Positions 6,891-13,338 of a stretch of DNA of 13,338 bases are shown one piece after another. The position numbers and the translations under genes are program-made. Position 1 is the stretch's first letter. Each line of letters starts with the position of its first letter. The stretch is from a virus, in UHGV virus genome UHGV-1739656. The stretch is one strand, 5' to 3'. The notes beneath the pieces are model-generated. The model was not told the origin of the DNA. It did not search any database and saw only the letters and a list, made by a program, of their open reading frames with translations.

Positions 6891-7317
6891 AACGCTGAGA
6901 GCACTTAGCCTGTTAAGGCGCCACACTTTGTCGCGGCTCCATAAATGCTCTCATCGTTGTACCCTCGTCTCTTCCGAGGCGTCACACCGAATCGCCGGGA
7001 TGGTGAATCCCCGTGCGCGGAATAAAACCGCTCGACTTGCACATTCCGGCTACCTGGTTCGTTTGCCCGAGCAAGGGAGGGTGCCCCTTAAACGTATCCA
7101 GACCGCTATCGGCGCATGTGCCATACGCCGTACTGCTCAAAATAAAAGCTCACTCCACCTGTTCAATTTAACGACAAGCCAGTCAGGTTAGTAACCGGAA
7201 TGAACTCTTTGGTTACCTGAAAGGTAATAATTTGTGCGTTAAATGTCAACTACCTACGATAAATAAATCATATGTGGTTAAATTGGTAATAATTTAATTG
7301 CGTACGGAGTCATTGAT

Positions 7318-7524
7318 ATGTGCATGGGTAGCTCACCATCAGTGCCTGCAACACCAGAAGTTCAGGCAGCACCACAGGAGCAGGATGCCGCCGTTGTTGA
7401 TGCCCGCGACGAAGAAACTCGTCGCCGTCGCGCTGCTGCTGGTCGTAGTTCTACGCTGCTTACCGGTTCTCAGGGCGACACATCAACCGCTAATACCAGC
7501 GGTAAAACGCTGCTTGGTCAGTAA
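7318..7524 (+). CDS. Small hypothetical protein (68 aa), low complexity
   Basis: ATG 7318 is preceded by CGGAGTCATTGA, the same 12-bp initiation context found before the portal ATG. Sits immediately upstream of the portal gene. Confidence 0.4.
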   Translation: MCMGSSPSVPATPEVQAAPQEQDAAVVDARDEETRRRRAAAGRSSTLLTGSQGDTSTANTSGKTLLGQ

Positions 7525-7538
7525 CCGGAGTCATTGAA

Positions 7539-9218
7539 ATGGCGGAAACAACTAAAGAGCGATTGAACAAACAGTTCGCACAACTTGAAAGCGAGCGTCA
7601 GTCGTTCGAGCCGCACTGGCGCGAGTTGAGTGATTACATCAACCCGCGTGGTTCCCGCTTTCTGACTTCTGAGGTTAACCGTAACGATCGACGCAATACA
7701 CGCATTATTGATTCGACCGGGACTATGGCGGCGCGCACTCTTGCCAGCGGCATGATGTCAGGCATAACAAGCCCCGCCCGTCCGTGGTTTCGCCTGGCTA
7801 CGCCAGATCCTGAAATGATGGACTATGGCCCTGTTAAGTTGTGGCTTGAGGCAGTTCAGAACCGCATGAACGATATGTTCAATAAGTCGAATCTCTACCA
7901 GTCTCTTCCGCAGTTATACGGAAGCCTCGGCACATACAGCACTGGTGCAATGGCGGTGCTGGAGGATGACGAGGACATCATTCGCACAATGCCATTCCCG
8001 ATAGGCAGTTACTACCTGGCTAACTCACCTCGTGGCAGTGTGGACACCTGTTTTCGCAAGTTCTCTATGACTGTTCGTCAGCTTGTTCAGGAGTTCGGGC
8101 TAAATAACGTCAGCGAATCCGTAAAAAGCATGTGGGAAAGCGGCACCTACGAGAAGTGGATTGAAGTGATGCATTCGGTTTACCCGAACATTGACCGCGA
8201 TACATCGAAGCTGGATAGCAAGAACAAGCCATTCAAATCGGTTTATTACGAGGTTGGTGGCGATAACGACAAGTTGTTGCGTGAGTCCGGATTCGATGAG
8301 TTTCCAATTATGGCTCCGCGCTGGGAAGTTAACGGCGAAGATGTTTATGGATCATCATGCCCGGGTATGCTGGCGCTTGGACCTGTTAAGGCATTGCAGC
8401 TTCTCCAGAAGCGCAAGTCGCAGTTGATTGATAAAGCCACCAATCCGCCGATGGTTGCTCCGACTTCCCTCAAGAATCAGCGTGCCTCCCTTCTTCCTGG
8501 CGACATCACGTATATCGATCAGATTACTGGTCAGGATGGTTTCAGGCCTGCTTATCTGGTTAACCCCAGTACAGCAGATTTGGTGGCAGACATTCAGGAC
8601 ACCCGTCAAATCATTAACAGCGCCTACTTTGTCGATCTGTTCATGATGTTGCAGAACATCAATACCCGCTCGATGCCTGTTGAAGCGGTGATCGAAATGA
8701 AAGAAGAAAAACTTCTGATGTTGGGGCCGGTTCTGGAGCGTCTGAACGACGAATGTCTTAATCCTCTCATTGACCGCGCTTTCTCGATGATGGTGCGTAA
8801 AAACATGCTGCCGACACCGCCTGACGCGATGGAAGGCATGCCCCTGAAGGTCGAATACATTTCCGTCATGGCTCAGGCGCAGAAGTCTATCGGCCTGTCC
8901 AGTCTGGCGTCCACGGTTAACTTCATTGGTCAACTTGCGCAAGCGAAACCAGAAGCTCTCGACAAACTCAACGTTGATCAGGCGATCGATGCATTCGCTG
9001 ATATGTCCGGAGTGTCTCCAACCGTCATTGTTCCGCAGGAACAGGTTGAGCAGGCTCGCCAGCAACGGGCACAGCAACAACAGCAGCAACAAATGATGGC
9101 GATGGGGATGGCGGCGGCACAGGGTGCCAAGACGCTAAGCGAAGCTAAAACTTCGGATCCGAGTGTTTTGTCAGCTATGGCGAATGCAGTTAGTGGTCAG
9201 GGTGGGCAATCACAATGA
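7539..9218 (+). CDS. Portal (head-to-tail connector) protein, T7 gp8-type
   Basis: 559-aa ORF. The N-terminal region (...STGTMAARTLASGMMSGITSPARPWFRLA...) and the Gln/Ala/Met-rich C-terminus (QQQQQQQMMAMGMAAAQGA) resemble T7 gp8 as recalled. Position after the terminase is consistent. Confidence 0.75.
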   Translation: MAETTKERLNKQFAQLESERQSFEPHWRELSDYINPRGSRFLTSEVNRNDRRNTRIIDSTGTMAARTLASGMMSGITSPARPWFRLATPDPEMMDYGPVKLWLEAVQNRMNDMFNKSNLYQSLPQLYGSLGTYSTGAMAVLEDDEDIIRTMPFPIGSYYLANSPRGSVDTCFRKFSMTVRQLVQEFGLNNVSESVKSMWESGTYEKWIEVMHSVYPNIDRDTSKLDSKNKPFKSVYYEVGGDNDKLLRESGFDEFPIMAPRWEVNGEDVYGSSCPGMLALGPVKALQLLQKRKSQLIDKATNPPMVAPTSLKNQRASLLPGDITYIDQITGQDGFRPAYLVNPSTADLVADIQDTRQIINSAYFVDLFMMLQNINTRSMPVEAVIEMKEEKLLMLGPVLERLNDECLNPLIDRAFSMMVRKNMLPTPPDAMEGMPLKVEYISVMAQAQKSIGLSSLASTVNFIGQLAQAKPEALDKLNVDQAIDAFADMSGVSPTVIVPQEQVEQARQQRAQQQQQQQMMAMGMAAAQGAKTLSEAKTSDPSVLSAMANAVSGQGGQSQ

Positions 9219-9511
9219 CAGATTTCGAAGACGATCAACTGAAAGAAGAAAACGCCCGTAAGCAACGTGACATGGCACAGCGTGAAATTGATGACATTCG
9301 CTTTGTCATGAGCAGTGAACAGGGGCGTCGCGTTGTCTGGTCGGTGCTGGAGAAAGGCCGGGTGTTTTCCGCTATCTCTCCGATGGATGCTATGGCAATG
9401 GCATTTAATGAGGGGCAACGCAATCTGGCGCTGGAACTGTTTCAGCGCGTTATGGCGCATTGCCCTGAACAGTATTTGAAGATGGCCAAAGAGGCCAGTG
9501 AACAGGAGTGA
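9215..9511 (+). CDS. Hypothetical phage protein (98 aa) between portal and scaffold
   Basis: ATG overlaps the portal stop (ATGA). Charged helical protein of unknown function. Confidence 0.5.
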   Translation: MTDFEDDQLKEENARKQRDMAQREIDDIRFVMSSEQGRRVVWSVLEKGRVFSAISPMDAMAMAFNEGQRNLALELFQRVMAHCPEQYLKMAKEASEQE

Positions 9512-9513
9512 TC

Positions 9514-10209
9514 ATGAATTTATTTGAGCGTTTGCTGTATCGCCGTCTTTGCAATGAGCAACCAGTCGATGGTGGAGCAGCTCCGGCTGCGTCAGAACCG
9601 TCAGCGCCTGCAGGTGATAACCCTGCTCCAGTTGGTGATCCATCACAACAGGAAGGTGATAAGCCACAACCTGTTGCTGATGGCGATAAACCTGCTGATG
9701 ACAAAAAGCCTGAAAACGATAAGCAGGATGAAAAAAAGGACGGCGATAAACCAGAGGGTGCGCCTGAAAAGTACGAGTTTCAGGCTGCCGAAGGCGTAGA
9801 GCTGGATACAGAAGCGTTGAAGGAATTCGAGCCGGTGGCGCGAGAACTAAACCTGACCAACGAGCAAGCGCAAAAGCTGGTTGATGCTTATCCGAAGATT
9901 CTGGCAGGTGTTCAGCAGCGCCAGGCAGAAGCCTGGCAGAAAACAACCGAGCAGTGGGCTGCGGATGTAAAAGCCGACAAAGAAATCGGTGGCGACAAGT
10001 TGATTTCTAACCTTAGCGCCGCACAGCGTGCGCTTGACCAGTTCGGGACACCTGAACTCAAAGAATATCTGAACACCACCGGGCTGGGTAATCACCCTGA
10101 TCTGGTCAAAACGTTCGTGAAAATCGGAAAGGCGATGTCTGAAGATGGCATGGTCACCGGTGGTAATGAAGGCCAGCGTAGTGCGGCCGAAGTGCTCTAT
10201 GGCAAATAA
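9514..10209 (+). CDS. Putative scaffolding protein
   Basis: ATG 9514 lies 5 nt after AGGAG (track start 9508 is a GTG). Position is between portal and major capsid. Has an acidic Pro/Asp/Lys-rich low-complexity N-terminal region and a helical C-terminal part ending RSAAEVLYGK. Confidence 0.55.
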   Translation: MNLFERLLYRRLCNEQPVDGGAAPAASEPSAPAGDNPAPVGDPSQQEGDKPQPVADGDKPADDKKPENDKQDEKKDGDKPEGAPEKYEFQAAEGVELDTEALKEFEPVARELNLTNEQAQKLVDAYPKILAGVQQRQAEAWQKTTEQWAADVKADKEIGGDKLISNLSAAQRALDQFGTPELKEYLNTTGLGNHPDLVKTFVKIGKAMSEDGMVTGGNEGQRSAAEVLYGK

Positions 10210-10223
10210 GAGAGGAAATGACA

Positions 10224-11210
10224 ATGGCTGTTAAAGGCTTAACTGCGCTAACGCTGGCTGACTGGGGTAAGCGCGTCGATCCAAACGGGAAAGTCGATAA
10301 GATTATCGAGCTTCTCGGTCAAACTAACCCGATCCTTCAGGATATGCCTTTTGTCGAAGGGAACCTTCCTACCGGACACCGAACCACCATTCGTTCTGGT
10401 TTACCTTCAGCTACCTGGCGTTTGCTGAACTATGGCGTACAGCCAAGCAAATCAACCACAGTGCAGGTAACCGATTCCGTTGGCATGCTGGAAACCTATG
10501 CGGAAGTCGATAAGTCACTGGCTGATCTGAACGGCAATACCGCCGAATTCCGCCTGTCTGAAGACCGCGCATTTATTGAAGCGATGAATCAGCAGATGGC
10601 GCAGACGCTGTTTTATGGTGATTCCAGCGTTAACCCTCAGCAGTTTATGGGACTGTCCTCCCGCTATTCCAGCCTGTCTGCGGGTAATGCTCAGAACATC
10701 ATTGATGCTGGTGGCACGGGTACAGATAACACCTCAATCTGGTTAGTGGTGTGGGGCGAAAACACCGTGCATGGCATCTTCCCGAAAGGGCAGAAGGCTG
10801 GCATCCAGATGGAAGATAAAGGCCAGGTGACACTGGAAGATGCTAATGGCGGCAAGTACGAAGGCTATCGCACCCATTACAAATGGGATAACGGACTTGC
10901 TCTGCGTGACTGGCGTTATGTTGTTCGCATTGCAAACATCGATGTCAGCAATCTTTCAGAACCATCCTCTGCCGCAAATATTGCGAAGTTGATGGTTAAA
11001 GCACTACATCGCATTCCAAACCGTGGCATGGGCCGCCCGGTGTTCTACATGAACCGCACTGTAGGCCAGGCTCTTGATCTGCAGTCTCTGGAGAAAACAT
11101 CTCTGGCTATCAGCGTAAAAGAGACAGAAGGCGAGTGGTGGACTTCATTCCGTGGTGTACCAATCCGTGAAACTGATGCGCTTCTGGAAACAGAAGCCCG
11201 CGTGGTGTAA
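10224..11210 (+). CDS. Major capsid protein
   Basis: About 328 aa, immediately downstream of the scaffold. Start set at ATG 10224 (7 nt after GAGGA) rather than 10218. Followed by a stem-loop and a small decoration-like gene. Confidence 0.65.
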   Translation: MAVKGLTALTLADWGKRVDPNGKVDKIIELLGQTNPILQDMPFVEGNLPTGHRTTIRSGLPSATWRLLNYGVQPSKSTTVQVTDSVGMLETYAEVDKSLADLNGNTAEFRLSEDRAFIEAMNQQMAQTLFYGDSSVNPQQFMGLSSRYSSLSAGNAQNIIDAGGTGTDNTSIWLVVWGENTVHGIFPKGQKAGIQMEDKGQVTLEDANGGKYEGYRTHYKWDNGLALRDWRYVVRIANIDVSNLSEPSSAANIAKLMVKALHRIPNRGMGRPVFYMNRTVGQALDLQSLEKTSLAISVKETEGEWWTSFRGVPIRETDALLETEARVV

Positions 11211-11226
11211 CGCCTGTTATTAACCT

Positions 11227-11246
11227 GTGGGTCGTAACAGACCCAC
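11227..11246 (+). promoter_or_regulatory. Perfect 7-bp stem-loop just after the major capsid gene
   Basis: GTGGGTC-GTAACA-GACCCAC with no U-tract after it. Candidate RNA stability or processing element, or weak attenuator, affecting capsid-gene stoichiometry. Confidence 0.35.
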
Positions 11247-11261
11247 TAATGGAGAAAGAAG

Positions 11262-11699
11262 ATGATCACCGACAAACTGTTGATGTTCTCCGAAGCTCAG
11301 GCGGTTACGAATACCGCGGCTTCTACTGACGTAATCGATCTCGGTCCAATTGACGGAAAACGTCGTGATATCGGCGTGGGTTACCCGCTTGAGTTTTGGG
11401 CGCTGGTTAACACAGCCGCCGCAGCAAGCGGTGATGCAACTGTAAACATCCAGTTGCAGACGAGTGAGAATAACAGATCATGGACCACTATTTATGATAG
11501 TGGCGCACTGGCAAAGACCGCCCTGACAGCAGGTAAACGAGTTGTTTCTGCAAAGGTGCCTGCCGGTGTTCAGCGATATCTGCGTGTTAACTACTCCGTC
11601 GCAACTGGCCCACTAACGGCTGGCGAATTCACTGCTGGTATCAGTCTTGATGTTGATGCCAATACGCCGTATCCGATCCGCTCAAAAGTAACTGGTTAA
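11262..11699 (+). CDS. Putative capsid decoration or cement protein (Bbp16-like)
   Basis: 145-aa beta-rich protein (Thr/Ala/Ser/Val/Gly) directly after the major capsid gene, with RBS GGAG. The N-terminus MITDKLLMFSEAQAVT...VIDLG resembles recalled Bbp16-family cement proteins; not verified. Confidence 0.4.
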   Translation: MITDKLLMFSEAQAVTNTAASTDVIDLGPIDGKRRDIGVGYPLEFWALVNTAAAASGDATVNIQLQTSENNRSWTTIYDSGALAKTALTAGKRVVSAKVPAGVQRYLRVNYSVATGPLTAGEFTAGISLDVDANTPYPIRSKVTG

Positions 11700-11709
11700 G
11701 GTGATATCG

Positions 11710-12045
11710 ATGTCAGGTGAGAAACCAAGATACCGCGTTCTGCGCCTCTCTCATATCCATAACACTCTGTGGCCGGAGGGGGCAGAAATCGAATACGAAG
11801 GTGAGCCTGGTAGCGCACTGGAACCTGTTAACGATGCAGCCAGACAGGCAAAAGCAAAAGTTGCAGGAAAGGTGTCAATGGCAGCAACCAGCACCAAAAT
11901 CATCAACGACGTGTCAGATGATGGTGAACTGGATAAGCTCCGTGAAGAGTACGAATTGCTCTTTAACGAGAAGCCACACCATAACGCCAAAGCCGAAACG
12001 CTCCGCGAGAAGATCGCAGATAAGCGTAAAGAACTGGGCGTGTAA
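11710..12045 (+). CDS. Hypothetical virion-module protein (112 aa)
   Basis: ATG 11710 lies 5 nt after AAGGTGA (track start 11701 is a GTG). Followed by a strong intrinsic terminator. Confidence 0.45.
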   Translation: MSGEKPRYRVLRLSHIHNTLWPEGAEIEYEGEPGSALEPVNDAARQAKAKVAGKVSMAATSTKIINDVSDDGELDKLREEYELLFNEKPHHNAKAETLREKIADKRKELGV

Positions 12046-12061
12046 GCCTCGCGGATCAGAC

Positions 12062-12083
12062 AAGGGGCTTCGGCCCCTTTATT
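12062..12083 (+). terminator. Intrinsic terminator after the capsid gene block
   Basis: AAGGGGC-TTCG-GCCCCTT stem-loop (GC-rich stem, tetraloop) followed by TTTATT. The next gene's RBS begins immediately after. Confidence 0.7.
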
Positions 12084-12095
12084 GCAGGAGTGTAT

Positions 12096-12419
12096 ATGGA
12101 ACTCGTAAACCTCAAAACCGGCACTGACAGCTACCAGGATGAGAGCGGAGAAACCAGAACTCGCGATGAATACCCGTGGGGGCTGTGCATCACTCTTAAT
12201 AACGACACATTGAATAAGCTGAAGGCGCAACCTCAGGGCGTCGGAACAGAAGTGATGATAACTGCAAAGGCTGTTATTCGAGGCCTGTCTGCCAAAGAAA
12301 CTGACGATGGTGTTAATCGCAGCGCCGATCTGCAGATCACTGATATGGCGATCGCTCCTGTTTCCGGGGATGTAGAAAAATCAGCGGCTGAAACTCTGTA
12401 CGGTAACGGAGGTGAGTGA
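12096..12419 (+). CDS. Hypothetical small protein (107 aa) with a scaffold-like C-terminal motif
   Basis: ATG 12096 lies 5 nt after AGGAG. The C-terminus ...VEKSAAETLYGNGGE closely matches the scaffold C-terminus ...GQRSAAEVLYGK. Confidence 0.5.
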   Translation: MELVNLKTGTDSYQDESGETRTRDEYPWGLCITLNNDTLNKLKAQPQGVGTEVMITAKAVIRGLSAKETDDGVNRSADLQITDMAIAPVSGDVEKSAAETLYGNGGE

Positions 12420-13024
12420 TGGCCTCTGTAGTAGAGATCTGTAATCGTGCGCTGTCCAATATTGGCAACAGCCGCAGCATTAACAGCCTGACGGAAGCCA
12501 GCAAGGAAGCGGGGGAATGTTCGCTGCACTTTGAGGCCTGCCGTGATGCTGTGCTTTCTGATTTTGACTGGAACTTTGCTACCAAACGCGTGGCGCTTGC
12601 AGATACGAGCAATCCACCGCCTGACTGGGAATATGCGTACCAGTACCCGTCAGATTGTCTGCGCATTACTGAAATTATGCTTCCTGGTGTACGCAATCCA
12701 ACAGCAGCAATGCGCGTTCAGTACGAAGTTGGTGCAGACACCAACGGAACAGGAAAGTTGATCTACACAGACCAGCCTCAGGCATGGCTCAAGTATGTCT
12801 CTCGCGTTTCAGATGTAAACATGTTTGATGCCATTTTTATGGAGGCGCTGGCCTGGCGTCTTGCGGCAGCCATTAACATGGCGCTGACTGGGAATGCGGA
12901 TCTCGGTACATTTGCTCTCAATATGTACAATCGCGTGATTCTTAGTGCTGGCTCGCATAGCCAGAATGAATCACAGGAACCACAGCCACCGGTTGACGAG
13001 TTTACCATTGCGAGGTTGTCCTGA
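12419..13024 (+). CDS. Putative virion structural protein (201 aa), possibly head-tail adaptor
   Basis: ATG 12419 overlaps the upstream stop (TGATG) and follows GGAGGTGAG. Position after the capsid module suggests a head completion or adaptor role. No motif-level support. Confidence 0.4.
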   Translation: MASVVEICNRALSNIGNSRSINSLTEASKEAGECSLHFEACRDAVLSDFDWNFATKRVALADTSNPPPDWEYAYQYPSDCLRITEIMLPGVRNPTAAMRVQYEVGADTNGTGKLIYTDQPQAWLKYVSRVSDVNMFDAIFMEALAWRLAAAINMALTGNADLGTFALNMYNRVILSAGSHSQNESQEPQPPVDEFTIARLS

Positions 13025-13299
13025 TGGCTATCAGTTGGATCCAGCCCAGCTTTGCTGGTGGTGAGATTGGACCGTCGTTGTACGGACGTATCGACATGGC
13101 GAAGTACCAGGTGGCATTGCGCAAGTGCGATAACTTTATCGTGCGGCAGTATGGCGGCGTTGAGAATCGACCTGGTACGCGTTTTGTCGGTGCCGCCAAA
13201 TACCCAAATCGGAAATGCCGCCTGATCCCGTTCCAGTTCTCGACGGTTCAGACCTATGCTCTGGAGTTCGGACACCAGTACATGCGCGTTATCAAAGAT
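13024..13299 (+). CDS. Putative virion or tail protein, 3'-truncated by the contig end
   Basis: ATG overlaps the upstream stop (TGATG). The reading frame runs into adapter at 13300, so the last six track residues (LSLIHI) are adapter-encoded and only the first 92 codons are native. Confidence 0.4.
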
Positions 13300-13338
13300 C
13301 TGTCTCTTATACACATCTGACGCTGCCGACGATCTTAC
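13300..13338. other. Library adapter (reverse complement of Nextera/Tn5 mosaic-end adapter), not biological sequence
   Basis: CTGTCTCTTATACACATCT followed by GACGCTGCCGACGA is the reverse complement of TCGTCGGCAGCGTCAGATGTGTATAAGAGACAG. The trailing TCTTAC would be index or primer sequence. Confidence 0.9.

Follow-up and report, generated by a model that had tools for sequence, protein, structure and literature searches.

Why should two otherwise unrelated proteins of one phage head module end in the same short peptide? The question is raised by UHGV-1739656, a viral sequence of 13,338 nucleotides (13.3 kb; all of it was analysed, and it is called the window here). The window corresponds to the head module of a podophage like phiV10 and epsilon15 and is 98–99% identical to the Escherichia phages phiV10, HEMP4, PAS61 and TL-2011b (genus Uetakevirus, epsilon15 group). 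A preliminary description had pointed out that the putative scaffolding protein (231 residues; 9514–10209, plus strand) and a 107-residue protein encoded downstream (12096–12419, plus strand; gp10-like, after its homologue in epsilon15) close on one motif, and had ascribed this to selection and not to duplication. We infer from comparative sequence data that the two tails probably constitute a shared C-terminal anchor that binds the coat protein.

The translations agree with the reported match. Read from either of its alternative starts (9508 or 9514) to 10209, the scaffold gene gives the C-terminus ...GGNEGQRSAAEVLYGK, i.e. ...RSAAEVLYGK, with the motif SAAEVLYG at 10180–10203 (plus strand). 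The gp10-like gene, read from 12090 or 12096 to 12419, gives ...GDVEKSAAETLYGNGGE, with KSAAETLYGNGGE as the last residues and SAAETLYG at 12381–12404 (plus strand). Seven of the eight motif residues are identical. Only two of the seven shared residues use the same codon, and the Ser codons come from different families (AGT and TCA), so the protein is kept while the DNA differs, as first described. Because the peptides are alike while their codons are not, the tails are not a recent DNA copy. In the complete genomes of phiV10, epsilon15 and BPP-1, no structural gene other than those of the scaffold and gp10-like bears such a tail.

A match of eight residues may also lack any shared function: it could be due to chance, to convergence of low-complexity sequence, or to recent duplication or gene conversion, or, in a variant of this idea, the peptide could be a degron or a tag for a host chaperone or protease. 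Short Ala-rich peptides are common, and a 7/8 match anywhere in the window proteins was obtained in 20 of 300 shuffles (∼ 7%). Between the C-terminal 20-mers of any two of the 18 real window proteins, the same match arose in 4 of 3000 composition-preserving shuffles (0.13%). These chance statistics, taken from the window alone, are suggestive and not decisive. The comparative data on tail conservation are decisive, and by that evidence the shared tail is real and not a product of chance.

A profile search of 1.84 billion representatives assigns 3579 clusters to the gp10-like family (E ≤ 1e-3). Homologues lacking the motif were looked for among the 136 listed representatives with an intact C-terminus (≤ 50% identity). 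A hydrophobic residue followed by Tyr was found in 123 and a hydrophobic residue followed by F, W or L in nine; 132 of the 136 thus keep the motif, and the other four look truncated. In these 132 proteins the core (Y/F/W/L after a hydrophobic residue) lies 15–25 residues past the LQITDM strand and the linker between them is hypervariable. Among relatives with at least 60% identity, [ST]AA[EDQ]TLYG is nearly fixed and the linker that precedes it varies freely. The tail Tyr is one of six invariant columns in an alignment whose members are 31–44% identical to its first sequence, BPP-1 Bbp20, and derive from Enterobacteria, Bordetella, Burkholderia, Xanthomonas, Caulobacter, Stenotrophomonas and metagenome-assembled genomes of an acidobacterium and a planctomycete; it is invariant in each of the gp10-like alignments A1, A2 and A3. 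For the scaffold, we rely on 22 hand-collected diverse sequences (21–73% identity to that of the window), the listed search matches being almost all enterobacterial. They end in ..(L/F/M/I)(Y/F)(G/P/D/S/A).. after a variable Gly/polar linker. The tail core, a hydrophobic residue and Tyr followed by G, P, D or S, is also present in scaffolds of phages from Proteobacteria, Acidobacteria and Planctomycetota.

Some gp10-like proteins have two tails in tandem (...LYG-x14-...LYGG, e.g. ...RATALYGAGSEGSRINGLSNALYGGG), as expected of a modular anchor. Tandem tails were seen at the loci L101 (7007–7375), L141, L165 and L118/L123/L127/L130 and in the proteins P0248 and P0335; in one such clade the second copy survives in decayed form as ...LLGG.

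Within a genome, the two tails covary. A diverse set of loci was gathered with BPP-1 Bbp20 as lead sequence; the window protein as lead gave near-identical loci only. The scaffold and gp10-like tails are RSAAEVLYGK and KSAAETLYGNGGE in the window, DLISAFYPKK and ELKDAFYPDGEDD in epsilon15 (in short, ISAFYPKK and KDAFYPDG), and DARRLYAASNMNP and AAQRLYGASSMSA in BPP-1 (shorter, ARRLYAASNMNP and AQRLYGASSMSA; RRLYAASNM and QRLYGASSM). The corresponding pairs are PWNRMYPDM and KYARMYADDPSMKD in CP2 (NRMYPDM and ARMYADDPSM), DPKSILYGG and NPSEVLYPNGEG in a Stenotrophomonas prophage, and DARAAKLYDKS and EQRAAKFYANTPTT in BcepC6B (ARAAKLYD and QRAAKFYA). Three further loci have DAKRFYPNSNMN and DARALYPNSSMN (L116, from IMG/VR; KRFYPNSNMN and RALYPNSSMN), TAEEIMYGSKD and SAEEVIYGDK (L139), and DAATVLYGE and DAATLLYGSD (L161). 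When tails were aligned on the Tyr, with the Tyr itself left out of the score, cognate pairs from 11 deep lineages scored above permuted pairs (P ∼ 1e-4 by identity and ∼ 1e-5 by BLOSUM62). In a second test, based on local alignment of the last 16 residues in 93 genomes reduced to 27 or 21 non-redundant representatives, the observed sum was reached by 0 of 100,000 permutations (P ≤ 1e-5). Where two separate peptides with unlike codons change in parallel, a single shared binding site is indicated; a contact of one tail with the other is the less likely reading. With a tail that is kept family-wide, covariation within genomes and differing codons, selection is also the reading that we adopt.

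Where is the partner of the tails encoded? Natural mosaics are informative here. The DNA of the window is 75–80% identical to that of epsilon15 through the portal, Bbp19 and the body of the scaffold. Identity is 40–55% from about nucleotide 10170, within the last ∼ 12 scaffold codons, through the major capsid protein (MCP), cement, gp9 and gp10 genes, and from the first codon of gp11 onwards it is back at ∼ 80%. One copy of the tail lies at the start of the divergent block and the other at its end. The corresponding protein identities are 80% (portal), 72% (scaffold), 42% (MCP), 32% (cement), 40% (gp9), 41% (gp10) and 85% (gp11). In 188 enterobacterial scaffold clusters, three tail types, AAEVLYG[KN], [IV]SAFYPKK and RMYPNMNP, are found on one conserved scaffold body. 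We compared 30 enterobacterial genomes in which the genes are complete. Where two of them agree in tail type, identity is 80–100% in MCP and 69–100% in cement, as against 36–54% and 35–46% where they differ, whereas both kinds of pair are alike in portal (79 vs 80%), gp11 (80 vs 82%) and scaffold body (75 vs 71%). In these genomes the scaffold tail type is perfectly linked to the MCP/cement type and independent of the portal, gp11 and scaffold body. Head modules are evidently exchanged as blocks, with the left boundary inside the scaffold gene.

The third module type is represented by L193 (JGI Ga0207713_1000484, 6001–9192), which combines the RMYPNMNP scaffold tail, a third MCP type and a 151-residue cement protein with a phiV10/epsilon15 backbone. 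Its head module runs cement, gp9-like, gp11, without a gp10-like gene, and the gene is missing from some otherwise isogenic head modules. Its absence from the RMYP-type module marks gp10-like as a head-module accessory that is not needed for the basic design. The scaffold family is also the wider of the two among sequenced phages (121 vs 60 phage records), and scaffolds retain the tail in phages without a gp10-like gene: ...AERMYPNYPA in Pseudomonas phage Tr60_Ab31, ...SLLYPNDKTA in Vibrio phage 1.185.O, and L193. On this evidence the tail has a function that is independent of gp10-like.

We conclude from the mosaic sequences that the partner of the tail is likely to be encoded in the MCP–cement–gp9 block and that portal and adaptor are not that partner. 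We take it as highly probable that both tails work as a functional motif and find one and the same partner within the coat module. Given the precedent for scaffold C-termini binding coat protein (PMC5644958), MCP is the first choice, and we favour it with moderate confidence. The tail might instead bind portal, cement, gp9 or Bbp19, or the two tails might pair so that the scaffold recruits gp10-like directly. The gp10-like gene lies directly after the portal gene in most lineages, and gp9 and cement are inside the same exchange block as the tails. However, tail type does not follow portal or gp11 type, and cement is external whereas scaffolds are normally internal (P22, T7, phi29, 80alpha). 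Direct pairing of the tails is difficult to reconcile with scaffolds that keep theirs without a gp10-like gene, and the coat-binding precedent also speaks for MCP. We consider a partner other than MCP unlikely. The mosaics also bear on a host-directed tag: enterobacterial phages that share their hosts differ in tail type, and the difference follows coat type, which a host factor would not require. Together with the rarity of the C-terminal match in shuffles, the retention of the tail over phyla, the differing codons and the covariation, this largely refutes chance or duplication without shared function, which we regard as extremely improbable.

The scaffold itself is putative and was assigned from its gene position and architecture. 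Its gene lies between the portal/Bbp19-like genes and the coat gene, and it is a homologue of epsilon15 gp6 and BPP-1 Bbp18 (phrog_458). The AlphaFold2 (AF2) model is all-helical: residues 16–80 are disordered, the body is helical from 99 to 210, residues 213–221 are disordered and a terminal helix spans 224–229. The protein thus begins with a short N-terminal helix, followed by a disordered acidic/Pro-rich stretch of ∼ 65 residues, a helical body, a Gly-rich linker and the tail, which is predicted to be a short helix (residues 224–229) after a disordered linker (211–223). An elongated helical protein with disordered regions, encoded between portal and MCP, is what is expected of a scaffolding protein. 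Database labels such as ‘protease’, ‘endoprotease’ and ‘peptidase’ are widespread for this family. We rejected a prohead protease (S49/ClpP, HK97 gp4/herpesvirus-like, U9/U35), since no such family or fold signature was found and the model is all-helical. The scaffold has no Pfam match, to a protease or otherwise, and no sequence or fold match in the PDB. In NCBIfam neither the scaffold nor gp10-like gave a match, save for one sub-threshold DNA polymerase III match to the low-complexity region of the scaffold (17 bits against a cut-off of 1259 bits). The protease label appears to have been inherited from an old similarity note.

How does an internal anchor fit with the name of the second protein? 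The gp10-like protein matches PF21628 over the full length of the profile (positions 1–98 of 98, E = 5.7e-51) and is a clear sequence homologue of epsilon15 gp10 (PDB 3J40 chain N; phmmer E = 6.4e-21). NCBI calls the family ‘capsid staple protein’ and Pfam describes PF21628 as ‘major coat protein-like’. Epsilon15 gp10 was deposited as an external capsid ‘staple’ in 3J40 (PMC9207676). The label goes back to electron cryo-microscopy of 2008 and 2013, in which a virion protein of ∼ 12 kDa was threaded into extra capsid density; proteomics, as cited in PMC9207676, reportedly detected gp10 in epsilon15 virions. These points would favour an external staple or decoration that bridges capsomers, with the tail on the outer surface and its resemblance to the scaffold incidental or due to a different site. 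However, the same group found in 2022 that an AlphaFold model of the 111-residue gp10 misfits the staple density (map-model correlation coefficient, CC, 0.10), whereas a 130-residue protein fits (CC 0.61, and 0.81 after refinement), and the authors themselves judged the gp10 assignment probably wrong (PMC9207676). The 130-residue protein of the epsilon15 head module is gp8, a homologue of Bbp16. The window has its own Bbp16-like protein at 11262–11699.

The predicted structure of gp10-like and the maps of related phages are also at odds with a staple. The AF2 model of gp10-like (predicted local distance difference test score 74.6) starts with a beta-hairpin and continues with a short helix and a long beta-hairpin (53–88), followed by a disordered linker (89–96) and a short helix over the motif (97–102). 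It contains no jellyroll and has no fold match in the PDB, not even to 3J40; jellyroll dimers at local two-folds, which define the external staple, were therefore rejected for gp10-like. Bbp16 is the proven jellyroll cement of BPP-1. The capsid maps of BPP-1 (3.5 Å) and of the CP2-like phage PhiXacm4-11 (3.16 Å) show nothing besides MCP and Bbp16-type cement, yet a gp10-like gene is present in both phages; the PhiXacm4-11 homologue, gp18, is an unmodelled ‘hypothetical protein’. The third enterobacterial head module, moreover, manages without the gene. An external staple is thus very unlikely for gp10-like. The true external staple or cement in the window, to which the jellyroll description would belong, is probably the Bbp16-like gene at 11262–11699 (‘hypothetical’ in phiV10-type records), and the name ‘capsid staple protein’ probably sits on the wrong gene (12096–12419) in NCBI and Pfam. 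We found no description in the literature of the shared tail, nor of a function for Bbp20/gp10-like beyond the questioned staple assignment; searches returned no papers on Bbp20 and none using ‘capsid staple protein’.

Two short ENA contigs (P0021 and P0117) join host ClpP to gp10-like at QITDMAI. We rejected these ‘fusions’ as a link to a protease: the junction falls at a QITD-like word common to both partners, the contigs are short metagenomic ones, and the products are probably assembly chimeras. Through them, gp10-like clusters acquire a spurious PF00574 (Clp protease) annotation.

Several points weigh against a shared coat-protein anchor. With the end of the scaffold gene next to MCP and gp10 within the exchanged block, the two tails would be inherited together in any case; given this linkage, only the mutual resemblance of the two tails within each block argues for a shared site. 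Cement, gp9 or a tail-to-tail contact could take the place of MCP as partner. Covariation is not seen in every lineage, and several cognate pairs share the hydrophobic-Y core only. The scaffold is itself identified by position and architecture. Finally, no extra density is reported in the high-resolution maps, though gp10-like bound at many of the 420 coat subunits inside the virion might have been noticed; its absence would imply that gp10-like is low-copy, disordered or lost after assembly.

We nevertheless prefer the shared anchor and suggest the following model. Each protein would have a folded or oligomerising body and a flexible linker of 8–20 residues in front of the tail, a short amphipathic helix that ends in hydrophobic-Tyr and a ‘hook’ of one to six residues. 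During procapsid assembly the helix and hook may dock on the inner face of the coat protein or on its N-arm region. The scaffold would use the tail to co-assemble with coat protein into procapsids, and gp10-like would enter through the same coat site as a second, accessory head-assembly or internal protein and not as an external staple. It might act as an auxiliary scaffold, compete with the scaffold, or persist in low copy as a disordered internal protein; the last is consistent with both the reported detection of epsilon15 gp10 in virions and the absence from icosahedral maps. Binding to the coat protein, an interior location and the fate of gp10-like after DNA packaging are all points that we infer, and the likelihood that gp10-like resides inside the procapsid is evenly balanced. 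A more speculative and rather doubtful extension is that the tail is a natural portable capsid-loading peptide, a helix-plus-Tyr hook of ∼ 10 residues that co-evolves with the coat. In that case gp10-like might be a dedicated passenger: as an internal protein it might be delivered together with the DNA, or it might compete with the scaffold and thereby time the release of the latter or set the fidelity of T=7 assembly.

Could gp10-like be cargo that is packaged by means of a purely capsid-targeting tail and ejected into the host for anti-defence or host takeover, as the preliminary description had proposed? Its anchor is of the same kind as that of the scaffold, virions of epsilon15 are reported to contain the homologue, and the protein is small, is not essential for the basic head design and carries an anchor that is modular, as the tandem tails of some homologues attest. 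Against this, the family is huge and ancient and co-diverges with the coat module at an MCP-like rate (41% vs 42%, phiV10 vs epsilon15 type). Its strict head-module synteny across phyla is what one would expect of a structural or assembly gene; a counter-defence gene would turn over fast. No enzymatic or inhibitor-like fold came up in the fold search (no PADLOC search was made), and the known ejection proteins of this phage type are T7 gp14–16 analogues encoded downstream. Ejected cargo is accordingly improbable in our estimate. Of the original proposal, the capsid-binding tail common to a second protein stands, on conservation, covariation and tail–coat linkage; for anti-defence or host takeover we found no evidence, and a syntenic head-module family of 3579 clusters fits a morphogenetic or structural protein.

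The gp10-like gene is always inside the head-assembly block, and in all 93 genomes that have both genes it is encoded in the phage's own head module. The order in most lineages is portal, gp10-like, Bbp19, scaffold, MCP, cement, adaptor. In epsilon15 and phiV10 the gene stands just before the adaptor gene, and in CP2-like phages between the large terminase and portal genes. Two loci from the survey deserve mention in their own right. L104 (PQ492659.1, Limnohabitans phage DC33) carries the taxonomy line Inoviridae (filamentous single-stranded DNA phages), yet has portal, gp10-like and Bbp19 genes of a BPP-1-type podophage. L112 (Sodalis phage phiSG1, 6686–10392) has its portal split into two open reading frames and looks like a decaying head module in a phage of the tsetse symbiont; the scaffold homologue there continues into an open reading frame of 517 residues, which was considered as a scaffold–MCP fusion and rejected, since its second half is not MCP-like.

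Upstream of gp10-like in the window, a G+C-rich UUCG hairpin (GGGGC-UUCG-GCCCC, then UUUAUU; 12062–12083, plus strand) appears in both the minimum free energy and centroid folds, and the homologous site carries a rho-independent terminator in the epsilon15 record. The hairpin was not called by a simple terminator scan. It is probably an intrinsic terminator, or an attenuator, that precedes the gp10-like and tail genes, so the ‘strong terminator’ first described is plausible as a terminator, with the fold and the epsilon15 annotation on its side and the scan against it. If the hairpin attenuates, gp10-like would be made at the level of the tail genes and not of the coat genes, which would fit a sub-stoichiometric role.

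The remaining genes of the window follow the epsilon15 plan. The terminase small and large subunits (4044–6190) are followed by the portal (7539–9218, PF12236) and a Bbp19-like protein (9215–9511, plus strand, PF25181), the gene for which is directly upstream of the scaffold gene in every case. A tRNA-Arg gene (anticodon TCT; 6814–6890, minus strand) lies between the large terminase and portal genes and is without annotation in the phiV10 record used for comparison. Downstream of the scaffold, on the plus strand, are MCP (10218–11210; HK97 fold, epsilon15 GP7 family, PF20911, E = 2e-149), the Bbp16-like jellyroll cement protein, homologue of epsilon15 gp8 (PF21190, E = 1e-46), and a gp9-like small protein without an assigned role (11710–12045; phrog_590), which diverges as part of one block with MCP, cement and gp10 and has a C-terminus that looks invariant (...KIAxKRKELGV). 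The stop codon of the gp10-like gene overlaps the ATG of the T7 gp11-like tail adaptor (gp11; 12419–13024, plus strand, phrog_394) in TGATG, and the adaptor bounds the divergent head module on the right. Beyond it, the window includes the beginning of the nozzle gene. The Tn5/Nextera mosaic-end CTGTCTCTTATACACATCT is present at both ends of the window (8–26, minus strand; 13300–13318, plus strand) and is followed at the 3' end by GACGCTGCCGACGA. The ends of the contig are therefore library adapter and not phage DNA, and the open reading frames that run into it (for example 6–191, minus strand, and the last codons of 13024–13320) are artefactual at their ends.

If the shared anchor is correct, it gives a first functional handle on a family of 3579 clusters that lacks an assigned structure or function and is probably misnamed, and it pinpoints the coat-binding element of the scaffold in the epsilon15/BPP-1 lineage. 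The short peptide, with its matched natural variants (LYG, FYP, MYP), would be a candidate tag for loading proteins into capsids; BPP-1 is already under consideration as a display platform. The annotation errors described above are spreading widely, namely ‘capsid staple protein’ or ‘major coat protein’ for gp10-like and ‘protease/peptidase’ for the scaffold.

Scaffolds with a C-terminal coat-binding element are familiar from P22 gp8, T7 gp9 and phi29 gp7. The window scaffold resembles them in the position of its gene between portal and coat and as an elongated helical protein in which such an element is predicted, but has no detectable sequence or fold similarity to them; we know of no second protein in P22, T7 or phi29 that copies the C-terminus of the scaffold. 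One targeting or anchoring segment on more than one head-interior protein is nevertheless an established theme. In lambda (gpC/gpNu3) and Mu (gpI/gpZ), a common C-terminus arises from nested translation of one reading frame, and T4 internal proteins have an N-terminal capsid-targeting sequence that is removed by the prohead protease. The window tails, by contrast, are on two separate genes 2 kb apart with different codons, and unlike the T4 signal they are C-terminal, with no protease gene detected in the module. The cargo-loading peptides of encapsulins are likewise short and C-terminal, sit behind a flexible linker, dock inside an HK97-fold shell and covary with shell type. The window pair has in common with them a short C-terminal peptide behind a flexible linker on unrelated proteins, an HK97-fold shell, and a peptide type that changes with the type of shell. 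Encapsulins, however, have no portal, scaffold or DNA and a different consensus, and one of the carriers in the window is the assembly scaffold itself.

The closest parallel is that of the 80alpha scaffold and CpmB of SaPI1, which have in common a C-terminal ‘helix-and-hook’ of ∼ 16 residues (RIIK) for the same coat N-arm site in the procapsid; CpmB competes at this site and redirects capsid size (PMC5644958). That pair has been shown both to bind and to compete, which would be predicted for the window pair. The motif in the window is hydrophobic-Tyr-Gly/Pro and has no sequence similarity to RIIK, and the gp10-like body is beta-rich, unlike the helical dimer of CpmB. CpmB comes from a satellite and redirects size, whereas gp10-like is phage-encoded, ancient and widespread, and size redirection is not known here. 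For lack of sequence relation, because of its phage-borne and widespread second protein, and with no size redirection known, the window pair is placed outside that family, though similar in outline. Both systems nonetheless consist of two otherwise unrelated small proteins with a conserved C-terminal peptide after a flexible region, and the AF2 models of both window proteins repeat the succession of body, linker (predicted with low confidence), short helix and hook. If the parallel is sound, it would extend the 80alpha/CpmB principle to a phage whose own genome, and not a satellite alone, encodes a second copy of the scaffold's coat anchor.

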